Assembly: GCA_019894975.1 (NCBI GenBank)
Contig: JAGXNO010000017.1
Coordinates: 1-64,000, forward strand
Source: Promethearchaeota archaeon
GTDB taxonomy: Archaea > Asgardarchaeota > Lokiarchaeia > Sigyniarchaeales > SOKP01
Direction: 5' to 3'
Length of the DNA: 64,000 nucleotides
Shown: piece by piece, positions 43,304 through 53,603 of the stretch
Position numbering within the stretch: position 1 is the first letter of the stretch
How the letters are laid out: every line of letters begins with the position of its first letter
Notes under the pieces: model-generated
Told to the model about the DNA's origin: nothing
Database searches by the model: none
What the model saw: only the letters and a program-made list of their open reading frames with translations
Made by a program: the position numbers and the translations under genes

Positions 43304-44614
43304 TTAAATTGCTAGATTAATTTGCCCGTATGTACCACCACCACCGGGGATGTATTCAATTTCGTTATTTCTAAGCGCATTTATAACTGAAGCAATTGTT
43401 GGATCAAATTCTTCTATTTTATTTATTGGAATATCTATTAAAATTTCGAATTCTTTTCCAAGTTCTTGAATTATTTTGTTATAAGTATTTAAAACAGTTT
43501 TACTGGTAGAACTTTTTATTCCTTTTACAGAACGGATAATATCTATTAGTGGTATTGCATCTACATATTTTGGTCGATGGTTTGGGTGTTTTGTTTCTTC
43601 AAATGTAGAAATATTTTCAATTCTTTCACTTACTCCCAACTTAACTTTGAAATTTTTTTTTAATTCTTCTTTACAGGCTGGGCAGACCATTTTGTTTTTA
43701 GCAACTTGATTAATATATTGTTTCTTTGCTGTGTTAGGGTCGTTAGAATAGTATATCACAAAAGTTCCTGATGTTGAATATTGATTAAAAATAGAAGACT
43801 CTGTTTTTTTAGCTTTCTTAAAGATTATTCTTCTACGACATCTATTACAGAACATATTATAGTACTTCCCTAGTTTTGGATTTAATCCTACATTTAAAGT
43901 AATTTTTCTATTATCTTTCCTCATTAGAGCTAATAATAGTTCCTCAAAAGAAGGATTATCCATATCGAAATTATTGAATTCACGTCCTAAAGACCGAGGA
44001 TCTTGTGAATGAGCATCACTATTACTCAAGAATGTTATATTTTTTAAAGATTCGAGCTTATCTGCTAGATTGGTATTTGCGGATAATCCTAATTCTAAAA
44101 AATACACTTTTTTAACTGTATCCTGATAGCAATCCTTTAAAGTCTCGAACTTTCCTTGACGAAAAATAGCTTTAAAGGGTGTGAATGCATGAGCAGGACC
44201 AATAATACCCCCAGAACCAGATATAGTGTCAACCAATTCGGGAGGAGACAAATTCACTCGAGGTCTTCCACCCCATTCATCTAATATATTTTTTGAGTAT
44301 GGTTTTAATTTTTTTTGAATTTCTTTAACTGAATTAAAATCAGGAAATAATACTACATGATGTATACTTTCTAGATCTTCTATTTCCGTCTGAAGAATGA
44401 AAAACACATCTTTATATGAGAGTGAGCCATCTTTTTCCTTTACCAAATTACTTTCCATGTATTTAAGCCATTCAGGTTGTAAAATATCACCAGTACCAAG
44501 GATTTTGAGCCCTTTCTTTTTACAAGTCTCCAACATTGTGTCTAAGTTTAATGATTTTGATACTGCAATTGAATGGGGGCTATGTATGTGTAGATCAGCA
44601 CTAAAAATATCCAT
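43304..44614 (-). CDS. PHP-domain endonuclease Q-like (TIGR00375-type) protein
   Basis: ADLHIHS, GTGD, PAHAFTP, ELGLS, NSDAHS, LGREFN, GKY, GVSERI, PGGGGTYG. Confidence 0.85.
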   Translation of the reverse strand: MDIFSADLHIHSPHSIAVSKSLNLDTMLETCKKKGLKILGTGDILQPEWLKYMESNLVKEKDGSLSYKDVFFILQTEIEDLESIHHVVLFPDFNSVKEIQKKLKPYSKNILDEWGGRPRVNLSPPELVDTISGSGGIIGPAHAFTPFKAIFRQGKFETLKDCYQDTVKKVYFLELGLSANTNLADKLESLKNITFLSNSDAHSQDPRSLGREFNNFDMDNPSFEELLLALMRKDNRKITLNVGLNPKLGKYYNMFCNRCRRRIIFKKAKKTESSIFNQYSTSGTFVIYYSNDPNTAKKQYINQVAKNKMVCPACKEELKKNFKVKLGVSERIENISTFEETKHPNHRPKYVDAIPLIDIIRSVKGIKSSTSKTVLNTYNKIIQELGKEFEILIDIPINKIEEFDPTIASVINALRNNEIEYIPGGGGTYGQINLAI

Positions 44615-44673
44615 CAGTTGTTATAAACCATAATTCAATAAAAAGATTTTAATAACGTGTTAATTATTTTGCC

Positions 44674-45729
44674 TTAATTTAAAATTAGCATCTTGTCTAT
44701 AGTTTGGTCAGTCAACAAAATATGGTAATACTCTAAACTATTTTTATAATTAACTTTTTCTAATTTTCCTTCAACTAAAACCATCTCCCCTTCCCTAGCA
44801 TGTTCACAAAATCGTGCTCGGTAAGAATTCACTTCTAGAATATCTTTTAATTCAATCCTATTTGAACTGAGTTTTTTATCTAAGACTTTCAGAGGTTCAA
44901 TTTTGTAAGAACAAGGAGTAAATATTGAATCCTTGGAATCAATAATTAAAGCTTTTATTCTAATTCTCCCTAAGTTTGTGTAGTTGTAATCATAATAATT
45001 ACCTTTCCAGTCATTAGGACTTTTTATATATCGAATAAAATAACCTATACCATGGAATTTACCTTGATGGAGTTTTCTTTGCTCACTCTTCATAAAATTT
45101 TCAAATGTTATGTCAGATCCACCAACTCTCCAACTGAAATGGGATTTGAATTCTGTCATATTGTATTTTCTGAGTTCACTCATCCCCCCCACTAGAGTAG
45201 GAAGTTTTTCCTGGAAATCATGACTATTTTCTGTCCCATAAAGAATAATATCAATATCTGAGCCCTTTTTATCCAGATCAACCATTGTAGAACCAGTGAT
45301 TCCTATTAAATCCTGAGGTATTCCCCCCTTATCAATAAGAAACTCACATAAACTTTTGGATCGGAGTTCTAACTTAGAAAGATTTTTCTTTTCTTTCAAG
45401 TTCTGTAAGTATTCTCGAGGAGTATAAATCTTTTTAATGTCTTGATTCATAACACCTTGTACTTCGAGATCAAGTTCTTTAGAAAAAAAAAGATACTTAG
45501 GATATTTAGTTCTGAGTAAAGAATAGCGATCATCTAAATTGTATATTTTGCTATATTTAATTCCCTCTTTTATTCTATCTCCATTGGGATCTGGATAAAA
45601 TCTTAAGAAACATATCTTTCTATCATTTGGATGCAAGAGACCTTTTACGTCAAAAATTAGATTGGATTCCTTAGTTTCTATATAGTCTCCTTCAATACCT
45701 TCAATTATATTCATAAAATTCACAATCAA
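44674..45729 (-). CDS. Predicted archaeal Pol-beta-superfamily nucleotidyltransferase
   Basis: GITGS...SDIDIILYG; C-terminal OB-like GEMVLVEGKLE. Confidence 0.75.
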   Translation of the reverse strand: MIVNFMNIIEGIEGDYIETKESNLIFDVKGLLHPNDRKICFLRFYPDPNGDRIKEGIKYSKIYNLDDRYSLLRTKYPKYLFFSKELDLEVQGVMNQDIKKIYTPREYLQNLKEKKNLSKLELRSKSLCEFLIDKGGIPQDLIGITGSTMVDLDKKGSDIDIILYGTENSHDFQEKLPTLVGGMSELRKYNMTEFKSHFSWRVGGSDITFENFMKSEQRKLHQGKFHGIGYFIRYIKSPNDWKGNYYDYNYTNLGRIRIKALIIDSKDSIFTPCSYKIEPLKVLDKKLSSNRIELKDILEVNSYRARFCEHAREGEMVLVEGKLEKVNYKNSLEYYHILLTDQTIDKMLILN

Positions 45730-45739
45730 AATTTAATAA

Positions 45740-46852
45740 TTAGTAGTTTGAAGGTGTTTTTGATTTGATTTTATGTTTTGGGATAGTTTTAACCTTCCTT
45801 AATTCTTTTTCAAAATCCCTTTTTTCTCTTAAAAATCTTTGTATATCTTTTTCTAACTTTTCTCTTTCTCGCCTTATATTATTTTTTTCATTCTCCAGCG
45901 AAGATTTTTCTTTTGCGATTTGTCTATAATCATCATTTAATTTTCTAAGTTTTTCCTCTAAATTTGGTATTTTATGTGTTAGAGAGTACTTATCTTCGGC
46001 TCGTGGGATCTTTCTTTCTAATTCTTTATATCTTGCATCTTGTTGTCTATTTCTTCTATCTAAATCATTAGAGTCTTTATCTATTTTATCTCTAATTTTT
46101 TTTAATTCTACCTTTTTCTTATCAATTTCACGCGTTTTTAAATCTAAATCCTGTTTTTTATACCTTGTCTTTTCTCTCTCTTCTTTTAATCTTCTCTTTT
46201 CGTCAGATATTCTATTTTTTTCATCAGTAATTTCCCTTTTTAGGTTATCTCTTTCTTTAGATAAATTTTTCACTTCATTCCTTGAATCCATTAATTTATC
46301 TTCTAAATCGTTAATAGTTCTCTCTAAAGCACTTTCTCTTCTTTCCATACCAGGAAGTTTTGTTTTAATATTCTTTAACCGATTCTCTGTGCTTTCTTTT
46401 TCTCTTTCTAAAGAGCTCTTTTCGTTTCTTATATCTCCACGCATGGTATCTAATTTTTCCTGGAATTTTGTTAGTTGAGCATTTTTTTCATTTAGTTCTT
46501 CATTTTTTCTCCTAAATTTTTCTCTTAATTGGCTTTCCTTCAATGCTAAATCATTTTTTTGTTGCTCCATATCATTATTAGCTTTTTTTAAGTCATTTCG
46601 TACCATATCCCGTTTTTCAACAAGATTTTTGACTTCATTTTCTAAGTTCTTCCTTTTCAATTCAAGGTTCTTGATATTATCATTATAATTTTCAATTTGA
46701 TTAACCACTTTTTCCCATTCGTTCTTTTCTTTATCTAACGCAATTCTCTCTTTTTTTATTTTTTTTAATAATTTTTTATCTGGGGAAAGATCTACTTCTT
46801 CATCCGGTGTTTTTTCTCGAATCTGATGTTTGGGAATAGGTTTTTCATCCAT
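45740..46852 (-). CDS. Long charged coiled-coil protein with matching head and tail motifs
   Basis: About 330 aa of K/E/R-rich heptads; IPKHQIREKTP at N-terminus and IPKHKIKSKTP at C-terminus. Confidence 0.8.
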   Translation of the reverse strand: MDEKPIPKHQIREKTPDEEVDLSPDKKLLKKIKKERIALDKEKNEWEKVVNQIENYNDNIKNLELKRKNLENEVKNLVEKRDMVRNDLKKANNDMEQQKNDLALKESQLREKFRRKNEELNEKNAQLTKFQEKLDTMRGDIRNEKSSLEREKESTENRLKNIKTKLPGMERRESALERTINDLEDKLMDSRNEVKNLSKERDNLKREITDEKNRISDEKRRLKEEREKTRYKKQDLDLKTREIDKKKVELKKIRDKIDKDSNDLDRRNRQQDARYKELERKIPRAEDKYSLTHKIPNLEEKLRKLNDDYRQIAKEKSSLENEKNNIRREREKLEKDIQRFLREKRDFEKELRKVKTIPKHKIKSKTPSNY

Positions 46853-47063
46853 AGATGTTCAACTATTATCTAATTTTGTTAATAATTTCATATGAATAGT
46901 GACTCTAAAGTGTTTGTAATTTGAAATACTACTATCTACGTTTCTGTTTACAGTTAATTCTATTTATATAGTTTAATTCACATTATTCTCATGTAGTTAA
47001 CATTTAAAAAATTAATGAAAGGAAATTAAGAATTTAACTATTTATCAAAACGGTGTTTATTAA

Positions 47064-47453
47064 ATGGAATTTGATGATGAATTTGACGAAGACCTAGAAT
47101 TTGATGAAGATTTGGAAGAAGAAATTAATGAAACTGAAGAGAAAGATTTGACTTCAAAAACTCCTGAAGATAAAGGTGCACCTGAAGGGAAAAAAATATC
47201 CGTCTATTTCATGAGCACGATCGGCCCGGGTGAGAAAAAACAAAAACTACTCATAAATTCAGAAAATCTTGTGGGAGATATTAAAGAAACAGTTGCAAAT
47301 TTATTTGGTTTAGATCCCGCAGATTTCTACTTAAGTTCTGGTGGTGTAACAATGGATGAACAGAACCCCATGAAAGAGTATTATGTTGATGATGGGGATG
47401 ACATACTTTTAATCCCTGCTAGTATTGCGGGGATAATTACTTACAGAAAATAA
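47064..47453 (+). CDS. Ubiquitin-like (UFM1-like) modifier with acidic N-terminal extension and apparent C-terminal propeptide
   Basis: Beta-grasp pattern ISVYFMSTIGPGEKK...DGDDILLIPASIAG-IITYRK. Confidence 0.85.
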   Translation: MEFDDEFDEDLEFDEDLEEEINETEEKDLTSKTPEDKGAPEGKKISVYFMSTIGPGEKKQKLLINSENLVGDIKETVANLFGLDPADFYLSSGGVTMDEQNPMKEYYVDDGDDILLIPASIAGIITYRK

Positions 47454-47483
47454 TCAGATTTTGTAGTAATTTAACCTATTTTT

Positions 47484-48278
47484 TTAAGATTTCTGTTTTC
47501 TTGAGGGAATTAAAGCAATTTCATCATCATCATCAATTTCATAATCATCTATTTGGGATTCGGAATGTAATAAAATCCCACCTGAAGATAAATGAAAATC
47601 GTCTTGCTTATAATTAAATAATATTCCAATCCTTTTTTTAACAGTAGTAATCGAGTCTTTCACATCAACAATAACTATCTTAGTTTTCTCACCAGGTTCA
47701 ACTAAGGATCTTACATATACACGCAGCTGGTCTTTCATTTCAAAAGTATTCATAGGAGGGTTGTAAATAATCTCCTCATCAGTTTTATATTGATTATTTA
47801 ACATGTTATCGATTAAAGTTTTTCTCTCATCAGTGTCAAAATATAGCATTTCTTGAATAAACTGTATCTTTTCTATTTTGGATATATCTAATTGATTTAT
47901 CTTATCTAATTCTTCTTGACTAAAAATAGAAAAGATAAATTTATTAATTAATGGAGAATCTTTGTAGGATTCTTCAGATTCCACATATTTTTCTATTAAA
48001 GGCATAGCATTAAAATAATCTTCAAAAATATCTACTGCATTTTTTTGAATAGATTTAGGTTTTGGCAAAATTTTCTTTTCTCTTATTTTATCAAACGGAG
48101 AACCAGTTGATTGGATTACAGTATAGATTGTACTTGTGGATAATACTGCTACGCTTCCAATATTGAGAGCAAGAAATAAATAAGAGTTTTCTATACGAAA
48201 TAGGAAAAAAGCCATATATAAAAGGATAAAACTGAAATATAGAGCGATGAGACCAATTAACCTATTTTTCTTCCTCAT
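47484..48278 (-). CDS. Membrane-anchored protein with C-terminal Ubl domain of the same family (no terminal Gly)
   Basis: Two N-terminal TM helices; LRVYVRSLVEPGEKTK...FHLSSGG...DDDEIALIPSRKQKS. Confidence 0.85.
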   Translation of the reverse strand: MRKKNRLIGLIALYFSFILLYMAFFLFRIENSYLFLALNIGSVAVLSTSTIYTVIQSTGSPFDKIREKKILPKPKSIQKNAVDIFEDYFNAMPLIEKYVESEESYKDSPLINKFIFSIFSQEELDKINQLDISKIEKIQFIQEMLYFDTDERKTLIDNMLNNQYKTDEEIIYNPPMNTFEMKDQLRVYVRSLVEPGEKTKIVIVDVKDSITTVKKRIGILFNYKQDDFHLSSGGILLHSESQIDDYEIDDDDEIALIPSRKQKS

Positions 48279-48363
48279 GATTTTTTGATTAGATTATTTT
48301 CTAAATTTCTAATATCTAAATTAAAATATAAATTGCTTTGGAATAAAATTGGAGTTTTAATAT

Positions 48364-49035
48364 TCATTCACCTTGGATTGATTTTAACACCTTAGAATAT
48401 TGTTCTAAGTCTAATTTAAATCCATTTCTACCATTTACTTTTTCAATTTTTATCAATTTCAGGTTTTTCAATATATCTAAATATTTTTTAACAGTACTAT
48501 GATTTTTTTTTAATCCATCTGCTATTTCAGTAATTTTGAATGCCTTATTTTCTTCTTTCATAAACGTGATAATGGTTTGGACGAGATCTTTATTCAAATA
48601 ATAGTGAAACTTATCAAACTTTGGATTTGAATCAAATTTGAAGAAAATTCTATGATTATTGAGTTTTTCTGATCTAACAAATTGAAATTTTTCTAAGCAG
48701 GATAGATGCCATAATGCTTGATTACTTCCAATTTTTAGAACTCTCATTATTTCATTAATATTAGAGGGTTTACGATTAATATAATTAAAGATTTCATTCC
48801 TAGTTGGATTTTCAATTATATTATTTTTCATTAATCGAGTTCCAGGAATAATGACTCGTTTTTTTATTAGTGATTTTATTATCAGTTCGATTTTATTTCT
48901 ATTTATATTAGGATTCAATCTTACTCTATTAGAAACAAATTCAATTATATCATTAATTGAAAAAAAGGTCTTTTTTGTTAAATATTCCTTTACTATACTA
49001 AATACGACAGATTCTAGATCTTCCAGAGATTTCAT
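48364..49035 (-). CDS. Tandem winged-helix protein (probable transcription regulator)
   Basis: NPTRNEIFNYI...ALWHLSCLE and ITEIADGLKKNHSTVKKYLDIL. Confidence 0.75.
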   Translation of the reverse strand: MKSLEDLESVVFSIVKEYLTKKTFFSINDIIEFVSNRVRLNPNINRNKIELIIKSLIKKRVIIPGTRLMKNNIIENPTRNEIFNYINRKPSNINEIMRVLKIGSNQALWHLSCLEKFQFVRSEKLNNHRIFFKFDSNPKFDKFHYYLNKDLVQTIITFMKEENKAFKITEIADGLKKNHSTVKKYLDILKNLKLIKIEKVNGRNGFKLDLEQYSKVLKSIQGE

Positions 49036-49313
49036 AGTTTTAAATTCATATCAGGGTTGATTTGCTTGCTTTTCTAGCTTAAAATTCTCTCTAAATCAAT
49101 AAATTATCTTTGATATATATTTATAGACATTCATATAATTTATAATATAATTTCTTAAGATGGGAATAAGCTTTTTTCTTAGTCAAAATTTCTATTAAAA
49201 AAACTTCAAAATCATTCCAATGGGTTTTATTATATCTTTTTATTGTGATTTAATTAAAATATAAAAAATAATAAATCATAAAATTAAAAATAAAAAAAAT
49301 GGAAGTGATATGA

Positions 49314-49649
49314 ATGAGTTTTGAAGATAAATTTGATGAGGATTTAGTTGGGGAGGAACCTGTTAAATCTAAGACTCCTATGTCTAAAATCCCTTCAGCA
49401 GGAAAGAAAATAACATTATATTTCATGTCAACTATTGGTCCTGGTGAAAAAAAGGAGAAATTAACTGTGAATGATGGAAATTGTGTTGACGATTTAAAGC
49501 AAACGTTAGGAAATTTATATGGATTGGATCCTAACGACTTTCACTTATCATCTGGTGGAGTAACTATGGATGAAAATAGTGCACTAAAAGAATATCATGT
49601 GAATGATGGGGATGATATTCTTTTGATCCCTGCGAGTACAGCGGGGTAA
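49314..49649 (+). CDS. Ubiquitin-like (UFM1-like) modifier, mature form ending in -STAG
   Basis: Beta-grasp pattern, free C-terminal Gly, directly upstream of E1-E2. Confidence 0.9.
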   Translation: MSFEDKFDEDLVGEEPVKSKTPMSKIPSAGKKITLYFMSTIGPGEKKEKLTVNDGNCVDDLKQTLGNLYGLDPNDFHLSSGGVTMDENSALKEYHVNDGDDILLIPASTAG

Positions 49650-49681
49650 CCTTATATAACTTTCTTCATAAAATATAATAT

Positions 49682-49720
49682 AAGGGCGTTTAGCCCTTTA
49701 CCTTTTTTTATTTTTTTTAT
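49682..49720 (+). terminator. GC hairpin plus T-tract between Ubl and E1
   Basis: AAGGGC-GTTTA-GCCCTT followed by T7 and T8 runs. Confidence 0.65.
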
Positions 49721-49728
49721 TAATAGTA

Positions 49729-50964
49729 ATGGTGATAATAATGGATAGGGGTTCAGATTTTTTCGGTAAAGAATTATCAGTTGAAGAGAGAAATCTTTAT
49801 GATCGTCAATTTCGTCTAGAGGGGTGGTCTCAGAAATTGGTAAAAAATTCGAGAGTTTTAATAGCAGGAGTAGGCGGATTAGGTTGTGAAATTGCTAAAA
49901 ACTTAGCTATGCTCGGAGTTGGTTATATTGATCTTGTTGATTTAGATATAATTGAACACTCTAATTTAAATCGCCAAATTCTTTTCACGGGGGCAAAAAT
50001 TGGTGAGGCTAAAGCAGTTGTTGCCGCTAGAAAATTACGAGATATTAATCCTAACATCATTGTTAAAGGGTATCACACTTCCTTAGAGCGGTTGAATCCG
50101 GCAATTTATAAAGCTGCCGACGTTATCATAGGAGGTCTTGATTCCATGAATGCACGTTTAAATTTAAATGCTCAATGTATTAGGTTTAAAAAACCTCTTG
50201 TAGATGGAGGGGTATCTGGTTATCATGGTCATGTATACACAATCTTTCCTTATCAAAATGCCTGTTATGAATGTAATCCATTACCTGTCGGTGAAGATGA
50301 TGAAATGGCTGCTTGTACCGTTGTAGGAATCCCCAGAAAAAGAATTCATTGTGTCTTCAAAGGGGATATGGCATTTAAAGAGAAATTTGACAGAGATCCA
50401 AATCCAAAGAATTTAAAGGATATTAAATTTATTCAAAAGATTGCGAATGATTTAGTTACCAAACATAATTTTTTACCTGAATACACAGAAGATGATATTG
50501 TAAAAATTATTGATAGACACGATCCTGGGATAATAACCATCAATGCAGTTATTTCCGCATTACAGTCCCATGAAGCTATAAAAATTCTTCACTGGAGAAA
50601 AAAACATAGTGGATTAGGAGAACCTATTCAAAGTTATATAATTTTCAATGGAATAACAATGAAATTCTATCATATTGAAAAACAGAGAAATCCAGAATGT
50701 TCTCAATGTGGTAAACATGTTCGAAGAGTTTCAATTAAATTAAGATCTCAATCCCCCTGTAGTAAAATAATTGAGATCTTAGAGAAAAATGGATTCAAAT
50801 TAGATCCAGATTCTGAACCAATCCTTACTTTATTAGATTTCAATGATATAAAAATTGTAGATTTAGAACAAAACCCGGATGAAAATAATTTAAGAAATTA
50901 TGATTTAATTACAGCTGCGGGGTTTACAGCCGGAGAAATCTTCATAACTTTAAAATTGATGTAA
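49729..50964 (+). CDS. Ubl-activating enzyme E1 (Uba2/Uba3-like architecture)
   Basis: YDRQ, GVGGLGCE, SNLNRQ, GLDS, Zn pairs CYEC and CSQC, catalytic ACTVVGIPRKRIHC, ~80-aa C-terminal domain. Confidence 0.92.
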   Translation: MVIIMDRGSDFFGKELSVEERNLYDRQFRLEGWSQKLVKNSRVLIAGVGGLGCEIAKNLAMLGVGYIDLVDLDIIEHSNLNRQILFTGAKIGEAKAVVAARKLRDINPNIIVKGYHTSLERLNPAIYKAADVIIGGLDSMNARLNLNAQCIRFKKPLVDGGVSGYHGHVYTIFPYQNACYECNPLPVGEDDEMAACTVVGIPRKRIHCVFKGDMAFKEKFDRDPNPKNLKDIKFIQKIANDLVTKHNFLPEYTEDDIVKIIDRHDPGIITINAVISALQSHEAIKILHWRKKHSGLGEPIQSYIIFNGITMKFYHIEKQRNPECSQCGKHVRRVSIKLRSQSPCSKIIEILEKNGFKLDPDSEPILTLLDFNDIKIVDLEQNPDENNLRNYDLITAAGFTAGEIFITLKLM

Positions 50965-51052
50965 TTATTTAACCAAAAATCATATTAAATGATATAAAAC
51001 AAAATAAAATTAAAAAAAATCATAAACAGAAGATAAAGAAGAGGTATAAAAA

Positions 51053-51580
51053 ATGAGTATAAGAAGTAGTCGTATTTCGCAAGATTTTGCGGGATTGAAA
51101 AAAATGCTTAAAGAAGGTACTCTTGTTCAATTAAAACCATTTAATCCAAAAAAGAAGAGTATTGACCATTTAGCTTTAGCGATTAAAGGGCCTAGAAGTA
51201 CAGCATATGCAGGTGGTGTCTTTAAATTGGAAATGAAATTTCCTACTCAGTATCCTAAAAAACCACCCTTTGTAAGATTGCATACTCCTATATGGCATCC
51301 AAATTTTTGGCCAAAACCTACTGAATATAAAGGACAGAGAAATATATGCTTAGCATTAGTAGATCCTTCCTTGATTGGTAATAAAGGAGGTTGGAGTCCA
51401 ACGAAAACTGCTGTAACTGTTGTTCAGGCTATAATTGCAATGTTAAATACCCGTGGTAAATATGTTAATCCCACAGACGTTTTTAATAAAAAAGCTGCAA
51501 TTGAAATGATGAAAAACCCAAAGTTTTTTGAGAAAAAGGTTAAAAACCTAGTGAAAAAATATGCGAATAAAAAGTGGTGA
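51053..51580 (+). CDS. Ubl-conjugating enzyme E2
   Basis: IKGP..TAYAGGVF, YPKKPP, WHPN, ICL catalytic Cys, WSP. Confidence 0.93.
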   Translation: MSIRSSRISQDFAGLKKMLKEGTLVQLKPFNPKKKSIDHLALAIKGPRSTAYAGGVFKLEMKFPTQYPKKPPFVRLHTPIWHPNFWPKPTEYKGQRNICLALVDPSLIGNKGGWSPTKTAVTVVQAIIAMLNTRGKYVNPTDVFNKKAAIEMMKNPKFFEKKVKNLVKKYANKKW

Positions 51581-51588
51581 TTTCCTAA

Positions 51589-52401
51589 ATGGAAGAAAGA
51601 GAGTTAGCTAATGATTCAATTAAAGATGTAATTAAAAAGAAGATTAAAGAAAAAATAAAAAAGGAATTATTAGATGAAATATGTGAAGAACTTAAATTAG
51701 AAGAAGAAGAATTAACAGAAGAAATTGCTTCAATGCTTACACAGAAATCATCTACTAAACCAATTATAAAACATTCAAAGGAACCTACAGCTAAAATGGT
51801 GGGAGTTAAAAAAGTTGAAATTCAAACAGAACAGGAAATTAAAAAAGAAATTTATATTTCTATAAAAGCAATCCTTAAAATCGCAAGTCATTCCCTTAAA
51901 TATGCTAATTCTAAGATTCCAAAAAACAATTGGGTGGAAGTCATTGGACTTCTCGGAGGGAAATTAGACAGTAATGAAATACTCCATATCGAAGATGCCT
52001 ACCCTATGGGTCATGGAACAGCAGTTTATGCAGAAATCAAAGATTATAAGAATTATGTGAGAGCTTTTAATGATATTAAAAAACAAAAATTATTTATGTG
52101 TGGATGGTATCATTCTCATCCAACTTTCGGTTGTTTCATGTCTAGGGAAGATATGGGGACTCAAGAAAGATACCAAAAACTTTGGGATAAAGCTGTTGCT
52201 CTTGTTATAGATCCTTACCTTATTGATGGAACATCTACGGGATTTGAAATTTATCGTGCAAATTTGAAGTCAAAAACATGGTATCCTTTGTTATATGGGA
52301 TTAAAGGGTCATTAGATATACGTATGTTACCAGATATATTAGCATTTATGAATCCTTTAATTCAAGGGAAACCTGCATATTTAGAATATGATGAAGAATA
52401 A
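51589..52401 (+). CDS. JAMM/MPN+ metalloprotease (Rpn11/CSN5-like)
   Basis: EVIGLL, GWYHSHPTFGCFMSRED, ALVIDP. Confidence 0.92.
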   Translation: MEERELANDSIKDVIKKKIKEKIKKELLDEICEELKLEEEELTEEIASMLTQKSSTKPIIKHSKEPTAKMVGVKKVEIQTEQEIKKEIYISIKAILKIASHSLKYANSKIPKNNWVEVIGLLGGKLDSNEILHIEDAYPMGHGTAVYAEIKDYKNYVRAFNDIKKQKLFMCGWYHSHPTFGCFMSREDMGTQERYQKLWDKAVALVIDPYLIDGTSTGFEIYRANLKSKTWYPLLYGIKGSLDIRMLPDILAFMNPLIQGKPAYLEYDEE

Positions 52402-52430
52402 ATAGTGAAATAGAAGGTGATCAGATAATC

Positions 52431-53603
52431 GTGGTGAAAATTAAAGCAATAACGCTAATAATACTTGTGTTCACATTTATTGGGATAATTCATGGTGCAA
52501 TCTTAAATTCTGTTAATGTATTTGTAAGTTGGATATTTATCGGAATCTGGCTAATTTTTTCTTTTAAAGTTTTAAAAAATATTAAACAACATCGCGAATA
52601 TAACTCACCTCATAATACTGCCTTTTTTACAATTTCTCCTGTATTTATTGGAATTTTCTATTCAATTTGGGGGAATTTTACGGTTTTATTAGGTGAAGAT
52701 TTATTGGAAGGTTCAGATTTATTTTTAAGTTGGTGGAGTATTATCTTTGGAACTCCGTACATTTTATATAGTGCAATTTCTTTATACCGTTGTTTTAAAA
52801 AATATAATGTAATATATTTTGGAACAAAATCTATTGATGCACGTAAATTTGGTTATATGCTGAGTATCTCCATTCTTCTTTTCATTATTATATATTGGAT
52901 AAGTTTTTACTCCCTTATCGAATTCTATGACCTTAATCTTTTTATTTTACTAATAAGTACTATCTTAATAATACTTATCCCAGGATTATTCGGAACACGA
53001 TCAAGGTTACCACAATTAACAAGAAACTACATAACAGAACGTACAAATAGGTTAAATCAATTAACATCACCTAGAAGCAATACGACACCTCAAAGATATA
53101 GAAAAAGCGTTCGAACAACAACAAATTCATCTCCAACACCCTCAACTAGATCCGTAACTAATAGATCAAGATCAGTTAGTCATTCATCAAGATCCACACC
53201 AACCTCACAAAGACGATCTACGACTTCAAGGTCTAAAACAACAACAAGAACTACAAGTAGAAGTCCAACAGGAACAAAGGTAAGTAGTAAACAAAGTACT
53301 AGGAAAATTACCAACTTTAATCTATATAAACCGAAAGCCGGACGCTTGTCAACGGAGGATTTTAAATGTATCTTTTGTTTTAAATTACCGAAAATTCCTG
53401 AAGACAGAGGAAGAGGAATAATATTATGTCCTAATTGTCGATATCCTGCTCATGCAGATGAATTTAAGGATTGGTTGCGAAGTTCAAATCTCTGTTCTCG
53501 ATGCAACGCAACAATTCCAGCAAGTTATAAAAAAAATCCTAAAATACTGACTGTCAAAAATTATATAGTTGTAGTCAAGCATTTTGTAAATAATAGGAAA
53601 TAG
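52431..53603 (+). CDS. Multipass membrane protein with S/T/R-rich linker and C-terminal RING-like domain (candidate E3)
   Basis: About six TM segments; CIFC...CPNC-x4-H-x2-E...W...CSRC. Confidence 0.8.
   Translation: MVKIKAITLIILVFTFIGIIHGAILNSVNVFVSWIFIGIWLIFSFKVLKNIKQHREYNSPHNTAFFTISPVFIGIFYSIWGNFTVLLGEDLLEGSDLFLSWWSIIFGTPYILYSAISLYRCFKKYNVIYFGTKSIDARKFGYMLSISILLFIIIYWISFYSLIEFYDLNLFILLISTILIILIPGLFGTRSRLPQLTRNYITERTNRLNQLTSPRSNTTPQRYRKSVRTTTNSSPTPSTRSVTNRSRSVSHSSRSTPTSQRRSTTSRSKTTTRTTSRSPTGTKVSSKQSTRKITNFNLYKPKAGRLSTEDFKCIFCFKLPKIPEDRGRGIILCPNCRYPAHADEFKDWLRSSNLCSRCNATIPASYKKNPKILTVKNYIVVVKHFVNNRK

Follow-up and report, generated by a model that had tools for sequence, protein, structure and literature searches.

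Why do a ubiquitin-like modifier and a coiled-coil protein encoded beside it share the same short lysine-containing peptide? The question is raised by a eukaryote-like ubiquitin cluster of a Promethearchaeota archaeon (Lokiarchaeia, Sigyniarchaeales; assembly GCA_019894975.1, a genome of 3.9 Mb and 31.6% GC labelled G000 here). The cluster lies on contig JAGXNO010000017.1, whose first 64,000 nucleotides were analysed as a whole and are referred to as the window. Two of its ubiquitin-like proteins (Ubls), a short one (49314..49649, plus strand) and a long one (47064..47453, plus strand), and a coiled-coil protein (45740..46852, minus strand) carry the residues K-T-P. A previous, sequence-only reading of the window had seen in these residues an acceptor-lysine or docking consensus, used both for the formation of chains and for the modification of a neighbouring substrate. 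Comparison with related genomes gives good support to one part of this proposal, namely that the peptide is a shared functional short linear motif, under strong selection and tied to the conjugation operon; as to the other part, an acceptor site is the favoured reading and a docking site its main rival, the data being compatible with both.

The motif and its conservation

The four K-T-P sites were confirmed to the residue by translation. In the coiled-coil protein (370 aa), they are IPKHQIREKTP (aa 6-16; 46805..46837, minus strand) and IPKHKIKSKTP (aa 357-367; 45752..45784, minus strand), the second of which ends three residues from the C-terminus. The short Ubl (111 aa) has VKSKTP (aa 17-22; 49362-49379, plus strand) and a degenerate second copy, SKIP (aa 24-27; 49383-49394, plus strand), which reads SKTP in most orthologues. 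In the long Ubl (129 aa), LTSKTP (aa 29-34; 47148-47165, plus strand) stands between acidic FDEDL repeats and the beta-grasp. The IPKH half of the 11-mers is an old K-I-P variant of the motif, as in the KIPKQ and KIPKH repeats of the family f10 described below, and the N-terminal 11-mer consists of a degenerate first copy, K-P-I-P (K-T-P-P in sister genera), joined to the canonical I-R-E-K-T-P.

According to AlphaFold2 models built from orthologue alignments, these sites would sit in disordered and accessible segments, the modifier's own extension included, which agrees with the flexible tails assumed previously. Residues 1-30 of the short Ubl have a local confidence score (pLDDT) of about 50, and a confident beta-grasp spans residues 32-106. 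The coiled-coil protein is modelled as a disordered head, three long helices (24-187, 195-288 and 294-355) and a disordered tail, residues 1-23 and 356-370 being non-helical and of low confidence. The rod shows a dip in pLDDT, with the helix broken at 289-293, inside the stretch RKIPRAEDKYSLTHKIP (aa 281-296; 45965..46012, minus strand), which contains two K-I-P elements. K281 and P283 of the first one (aa 281-283) are nearly invariant across families in the orthologue alignment; this internal element may be a third copy of the motif or only a conserved hinge.

As the two Ubls are paralogues and the termini of the coiled-coil protein an internal repeat, the four sites of the window represent only two independent events, and conservation in orthologues is therefore the decisive test. 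The same fact is the best argument for a dismissive explanation, in which the Ubl copies would match because of their paralogy and the coiled-coil termini because of internal duplication and low-complexity composition, without any shared function. In an alignment of 32 orthologues of the coiled-coil protein, with identities down to 25%, only 14 columns are invariant and half of them (I11, K14, T15, P16, K365, T366 and P367) belong to the motif. Many of these orthologues carry the motif in tandem (one to five copies N-terminally, one to four C-terminally), repeated every 7-8 residues with the consensus I-[KR]-[STE]-K-T-P-[SDEG]; the C-terminal IPKH part is in many of them replaced by one to three more copies of I-K-[ST]-K-T-P-S. 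An alignment of 56 Ubls from several Asgard families gives the same picture on the side of the modifier: P22 is present in all of them and K20 in at least 90%, the remaining extension being variable. In most of these Ubls the motif occurs twice at a spacing of 5-7 residues, flanked by an acidic FDEDL-type stretch on one side and the beta-grasp on the other, and the orthologues of the long Ubl carry E-[ST]-K-T-P, mostly with a second copy, K-[TIA]-P, upstream. In both proteins the motif thus proved to be the most strongly conserved element, within the class and outside it; the lack of conservation that would have spoken against the sequence-only reading is clearly not seen.

Proteins found by searching 1.84 billion representative proteins with the Ubl profile extend this observation. 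Among the best 150 matches, K-[TISVA]-P lies no more than 45 residues upstream of the Ubl core in 28 of the 39 family units, and fusion proteins keep the motif just upstream of the beta-grasp. Two proteins, P0031 (372 aa) and P0032 (250 aa), are poly-Ubl precursors with units joined head to tail, three matched stretches being present in the first and two in the second; every unit seen is provided with an acidic stretch and a K-T-P linker of its own. They are an archaeal counterpart of polyubiquitin genes. An internal contrast is provided by a membrane-anchored protein of the window (47484..48278, minus strand), whose C-terminal Ubl domain ends in ...IPSRKQKS without a terminal Gly and is therefore non-conjugatable: no K-T-P motif was found upstream of this domain. 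The motif is carried by conjugatable Ubls only.

Four loci of relatives (labels beginning with L and G denote loci and genomes of relatives, respectively) encode natural fusion proteins, in which a large N-terminal part precedes a C-terminal Ubl with AG as its last residues: L087:9072-10814(-), L088:1910-3718(+), L067:9691-11448(-) and L068:2213-3964(+). Their N-terminal part contains the P-loop GSGKT in two families and a different domain in another; fusions of this second kind keep a K-T-P pair just before the Ubl. In Candidatus Lokiarchaeum ossiferum, which belongs to the same order as the source organism, the Ubl is NEF87_002996.

The gene of the coiled-coil protein is divergent from that of the long Ubl, as stated previously, with a gap of 211 bp between them. 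The same divergent arrangement with the Ubl gene recurs in 30 species of the genus, and further families of the class show it as well. Among 61 relatives (which are not independent samples, so that the counts given here and below are descriptive), none of the 11 without the Ubl has the coiled-coil gene. Six genomes have the Ubl and no coiled-coil sequence match, and synteny reveals the gene in three of them. The neighbour gene is co-inherited with the operon. No Pfam family matches the coiled-coil protein above cut-off, the only hits being sub-threshold coiled-coil families; a feature search of a protein atlas gave no match at 0.9 or above, nor did an exact-sequence look-up of predicted start-codon versions of the coiled-coil proteins give any match.

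Specificity was examined in a crude proteome of the whole genome (3,571 open reading frames, 1.14 M residues). The hydrophobic-x-[SE]-K-T-P pattern occurs 15 times, 6 of them in the Ubl/coiled-coil set, and KSKTP occurs four times (0.9 expected), always in this set; chance is excluded by these counts and, decisively, by the conservation in orthologues. Tandem copies are confined in G000 to the Ubl paralogues, apart from a few other pairs that lack the hydrophobic context. A degenerate DNA pattern for tandem K-T-P, run on five other genomes including that of L. ossiferum, matched six times in two genomes of the genus, each time in a Ubl or coiled-coil gene; in L. ossiferum and G042, 7 of the 14 matches fall in these genes. 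None of the five matches in G060 lies in the Ubl locus, and the Ubl and coiled-coil protein of that genome have no tandem K-T-P. Four stray matches (two from L. ossiferum, two from G060) were considered as further members of the family and rejected: three are out of frame and the last is a single chance-like case in the linker of a membrane protein.

Taken as a whole, an absence of shared function is extremely improbable, since the motif is invariant across orthologues at 25% identity, is restricted to these genes in the genome-wide checks and recurs in unrelated neighbour proteins of other classes, to which the next section turns. The triplet K-x-P, moreover, exceeds the shuffled expectation in 500 of 500 shuffles.

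The constraint on the motif lysine

The overall consensus is psi-x-x-K-[T/I]-P, with psi (a hydrophobic residue) at position -3, lysine at position 0 and proline at position +2. The residue preceding [TI]P is lysine in 141 cases and arginine in none in the coiled-coil tails, and lysine in 157 cases and arginine in one in the Ubl extensions, i.e., 298 lysines and a single arginine in the pooled sets. At position -2 of the coiled-coil tails, the two residues exchange freely (73 K, 44 R), and in relatives of higher GC content the flanking lysines become arginines whereas the motif lysine is unchanged. Position -3 of the coiled-coil tails is Ile in 127 of 141 copies. At position +1, Thr predominates in Lokiarchaeia, where it fills the middle of 141 of the 163 K-x-P triplets of the coiled-coil tails and of 144 of the 185 of the Ubl extensions; in degenerate copies, it is replaced by Ile, Val, Ala, Lys, Tyr or His, Ile being found in sister lineages. 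These data reveal a lysine-specific constraint at a fixed register in a short motif.

The gene adjacent to the operon differs in other Asgard classes, yet the motif is present again, often in many copies. In the family f10, the divergent neighbour is a K/P-rich protein of 215-262 aa with KIPKQ or KIPKH repeats at both ends, in which K-I-P accounts for 26 of 51 K-x-P triplets and R-x-P occurs once. In the family f27, HRI-x-x-KTP lies in the linker of a small protein of two domains, and a second protein, K/P-rich and encoded downstream of the E3-like gene, carries six to eight copies of I-x-x-K-[TI]-P; K-I-P is here also the commonest form (10 of 36 K-x-P).

These residue frequencies bear on two explanations that do not involve conjugation to the lysine. 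The first one, already raised as an alternative by the sequence-only reading, is that T-P is a proline-directed phosphorylation site regulating both proteins, in the manner of neurofilament KSP repeats. The prevalence of Thr in Lokiarchaeia would agree with it, and the head-rod-tail layout with repeats in the tails recalls intermediate filaments. However, the Ser or Thr preceding proline is not constant: the f10 and f27 neighbours most often have Ile in the middle, Ile, Val, Ala or Lys stand there in degenerate copies elsewhere, and the constant residues are Lys and Pro. Furthermore, G000 has one match to the Pkinase family (PF00069), RIO-type and atypical kinases not having been searched for, and proline-directed kinases of the CMGC type are not known in archaea. 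Given that Thr can be replaced and that only one match to the Pkinase family is present in the genome, this alternative is very unlikely; a lysine-directed role is favoured over it as the motif lysine is almost never arginine while Thr gives way to Ile, Val, Ala and Lys.

The second explanation is that basic Lys/Pro repeats bind a polyanion, either nucleic acid, acidic lipids or the acidic FDEDL stretch of the Ubl itself, like the (S/T)PKK repeats of histone H1. The neighbours in f10 and f27 are indeed very basic, K/P-rich, disordered proteins, each heptad brings a net charge of about +2, and in the Ubl extension the motif is accompanied by a long acidic stretch. Yet electrostatic binders swap lysine and arginine freely, which is not the case here, and the N-terminal copies of the coiled-coil protein lie in an acidic context (I-R-E-K-T-P-D-E-E). 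The precise register of psi, lysine and proline, kept over very long evolutionary distances, is also unexpected for such repeats, so that polyanion binding appears improbable, albeit less so than phosphorylation. With a phosphosite unlikely and an electrostatic repeat failing on the ban on arginine and on the fixed register, a lysine-directed role is left. A likeness of VKSKTPS to the tau repeat VKSKIGS was judged to be a coincidence.

The conjugation operon and the candidate readers of the motif

The short Ubl, which ends in a single terminal Gly (TAG; ...STAG), is the first gene of a co-directional Ubl-E1-E2-JAB-E3 string extending from 49314 to 53603 on the plus strand. It is followed by a ThiF-type E1 (49729-50964; PF00899, 4.9e-60), an E2 with the UQ_con/UBC fold (51053-51580; PF00179, 2.4e-25), a JAB/MPN protease (51589-52401; PF01398, 8.7e-16) and an E3-like multipass membrane protein with a C-terminal Zn finger (52431-53603). 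The Ubls of the window match PF00240. The active-site residues of the E2 (HPN...C: H82, P83, N84 and C99) are invariant in the alignment of its relatives, and the Zn-finger region CxxC...CPxC...H...CxxC is conserved. The gene set, with its beta-grasp modifier, ThiF E1, UBC E2, JAB/MPN+ protein and Zn-finger E3-like protein, fits an archaeal operon-type ubiquitylation system. Neither the E1, the E2, the JAB protein (its N-terminal region included) nor the Zn-finger protein has a conserved copy of the motif; in the N-terminal region of the JAB protein and in the Zn-finger protein, only sporadic K-x-P triplets were found. In the window, the Zn finger holds FKLPKIPED, and with it two K-x-P triplets, in the segment separating the first and second Cys pairs; the sequence is specific to the family, other lineages having FELPSTSD or similar at this place.

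On the basis of sequence pattern and gene context, the preferred reading, at somewhat less than even probability, is that the E2/E3 of the operon recognize psi-x-x-K-[T/I]-P as an acceptor consensus centred on the lysine, with chains formed on the extension of the tag and the neighbour protein modified as well. Under this proposal, the E2 would read the motif, either directly or jointly with the membrane Zn-finger protein, in which no substrate-binding domain is evident. The motif on the N-terminal extension of the tag would lead to tag-on-tag chains; as this extension carries the code, chains are proposed to grow through it. The motif on the neighbour protein would make the latter a dedicated, multiply modifiable target, taking the form of a coiled-coil rod with motif-bearing ends in this lineage and of K/P-rich disordered proteins in other classes. 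Once modified, the neighbour would become a multivalent tagged scaffold. More broadly, and with a little less confidence still, the ancestral Asgard system may have worked by a linear acceptor code, in which the E2, with or without the Zn-finger protein, conjugates the tag to the motif lysine and each lineage has its own dedicated multi-site acceptor encoded beside the operon. Conjugation to the lysine and the identity of the reader enzyme are inferred, and the E1, E2, JAB and Zn-finger proteins are all candidate readers.

The main rival of an acceptor site is docking only: a single shared partner would bind the motif non-covalently, and would co-locate the tag and the neighbour or make them compete, the lysine being contacted and not conjugated. 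Candidates for this partner are the E1, the backside of the E2, the JAB protease and the Zn-finger protein, besides a factor encoded elsewhere. Much of the evidence for an acceptor (conservation, disorder, multivalency, restriction to the neighbours of the operon) holds for docking as well. In addition, multivalent tandem motifs are typical for oligomeric partners, and the hydrophobic residue at position -3 together with the invariant proline looks like a peptide-binding signature. Nevertheless, charge-based docking usually tolerates the exchange of lysine for arginine, which is essentially never seen here, and no peptide-binding domain is recognizable by Pfam in the operon. The AlphaFold2 model of the short Ubl does not pack the extension on its own beta-grasp either, although this is weak information. 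Docking is therefore considered rather unlikely, while retaining a real share of the probability.

A prediction of the complex between the E2 and the coiled-coil tail (residues 331-370), made from the two orthologue alignments, scored 0.24 against a mark of 0.32; this one prediction speaks neither for nor against binding. Several points weigh against the acceptor consensus. The Ubl core has conserved lysines of its own (K46, K49 and K62), so that chains could form without the extension. By its profile, the E2 is nearest to generic E2s of the Ubc13, UBE2T and Rad6 types, without special likeness to Ubc9. The acceptor role relies on the sequence pattern and the gene context, and a strictly kept lysine also fits a binding pocket that requires lysine or another modification of this residue. 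Finally, the counts overstate the statistical weight of the conservation, since the related genomes are not independent.

The other genes of the cluster show some lineage-specific features. The long Ubl ends in IAG followed by six residues, IITYRK (47433-47453), whereas the orthologues seen all stop directly after the Gly; this protein would thus be either a precursor to be trimmed, presumably by the JAB protease, or the product of a recent read-through. Two additional copies of the short Ubl (C26:789-1121 and C162:4104-4436; 110 aa, 87-88% identical to that of the window) are present in G000, on short contigs and in near-identical contexts (MarR-like, old-yellow-enzyme-like and acyl-CoA-dehydrogenase-like genes). 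They may be true paralogues or reflect redundancy of the assembly, for which the contamination estimate is 8.55%. The membrane-anchored Ubl protein and a double winged-helix protein (48364..49035, minus strand) are encoded between the two Ubl genes (47484-49035) only in this genus and in one sister genus (L093); in other lineages, the coiled-coil gene is followed by Ubl-E1-E2-JAB-E3 without inserted genes. Upstream of the coiled-coil gene (43304-45729) are found the genes of a PHP-domain protein that resembles endonuclease Q by eye and of a nucleotidyltransferase-like protein (sub-threshold DUF4269), both in the same position in sister genera (L093, L097).

Significance and relation to known systems

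Among prokaryotes, the ubiquitin operons of Asgard archaea are the nearest relatives of the eukaryotic system, and the literature searched names no natural substrate, recognition code or chain-forming site for them. The motif provides a hypothesis that can be tested cheaply, as it offers a defined lysine, a defined peptide and a candidate dedicated target encoded beside the enzymes, in a system that also occurs in the cultured L. ossiferum. If the motif is an acceptor, the neighbour protein would be the first candidate natural substrate of an archaeal ubiquitin system to be identified, and target choice guided by a linear consensus, so far known for SUMO, would be an ancient trait of ubiquitin-like tagging that predates eukaryotes. 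If it is a docking site instead, the neighbour protein would still be a conserved new component of the system.

Asgard ubiquitin clusters have already been described (PMC9192718, 10.1101/2023.07.25.550441), and term searches of these two sources did not retrieve the word 'extension'. The operon system of Caldiarchaeum subterraneum comprises Ub, an E1-like, an E2-like and a small RING finger protein together with Rpn11; its E1 and E2 are auto-modified, several chain linkages are formed and the assays used a foreign coiled-coil substrate, Rad50 (PMC5654768). The passages of this article that were consulted mention no N-terminal extension of Ub, shared motif or conserved neighbour substrate. The Asgard cluster has the same enzyme set and the same operon logic, but its E3-like protein is a multipass membrane protein and its tag ends in Ala-Gly. 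Neither the extension motif nor the neighbour protein was found described in the full-text literature searched; as most subscription journals fall outside this coverage, novelty is unproven.

Among repeats that combine lysine with Ser/Thr-Pro, the KSP repeats of neurofilament tails and the (S/T)PKK repeats of histone H1 tails resemble the motif in that they occupy the disordered ends of a rod-like or basic protein. They differ from it in that Lys and Pro are fixed here while Thr can be replaced by Ile, and in that the same motif is found in a ubiquitin-like tag.

A closer parallel is the TEK-box of ubiquitin, a motif on the acceptor ubiquitin that is read by Ube2S for the formation of K11 chains (PMC4197637). 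The TEK-box is a surface of the folded ubiquitin core, unlike the Asgard element, which is linear, often in tandem and located in a disordered extension. Related TEK-boxes occur in APC/C substrates. In both systems, a recognition element is common to substrate and modifier, and the same enzyme could start and extend the modification.

SUMO conjugation uses the consensus psi-K-x-E, which is read by Ubc9, and SUMO chains are formed through Lys11 in the N-terminal extension of SUMO2/3 (Lys15 of Smt3). The Asgard motif is likewise short and lysine-centred, is found in disordered segments of the putative substrate and in the N-terminal extension of the modifier, and has a fixed position +2. It differs by psi at position -3 and by K-[T/I]-P instead of psi-K-x-[DE]. 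Moreover, the profile of the Asgard modifier is closest to ubiquitin chains, not to SUMO, and the E2 is not specifically Ubc9-like. The enzyme cluster is already known, and a consensus or docking motif common to modifier and target is of a known kind, which takes here a new form.

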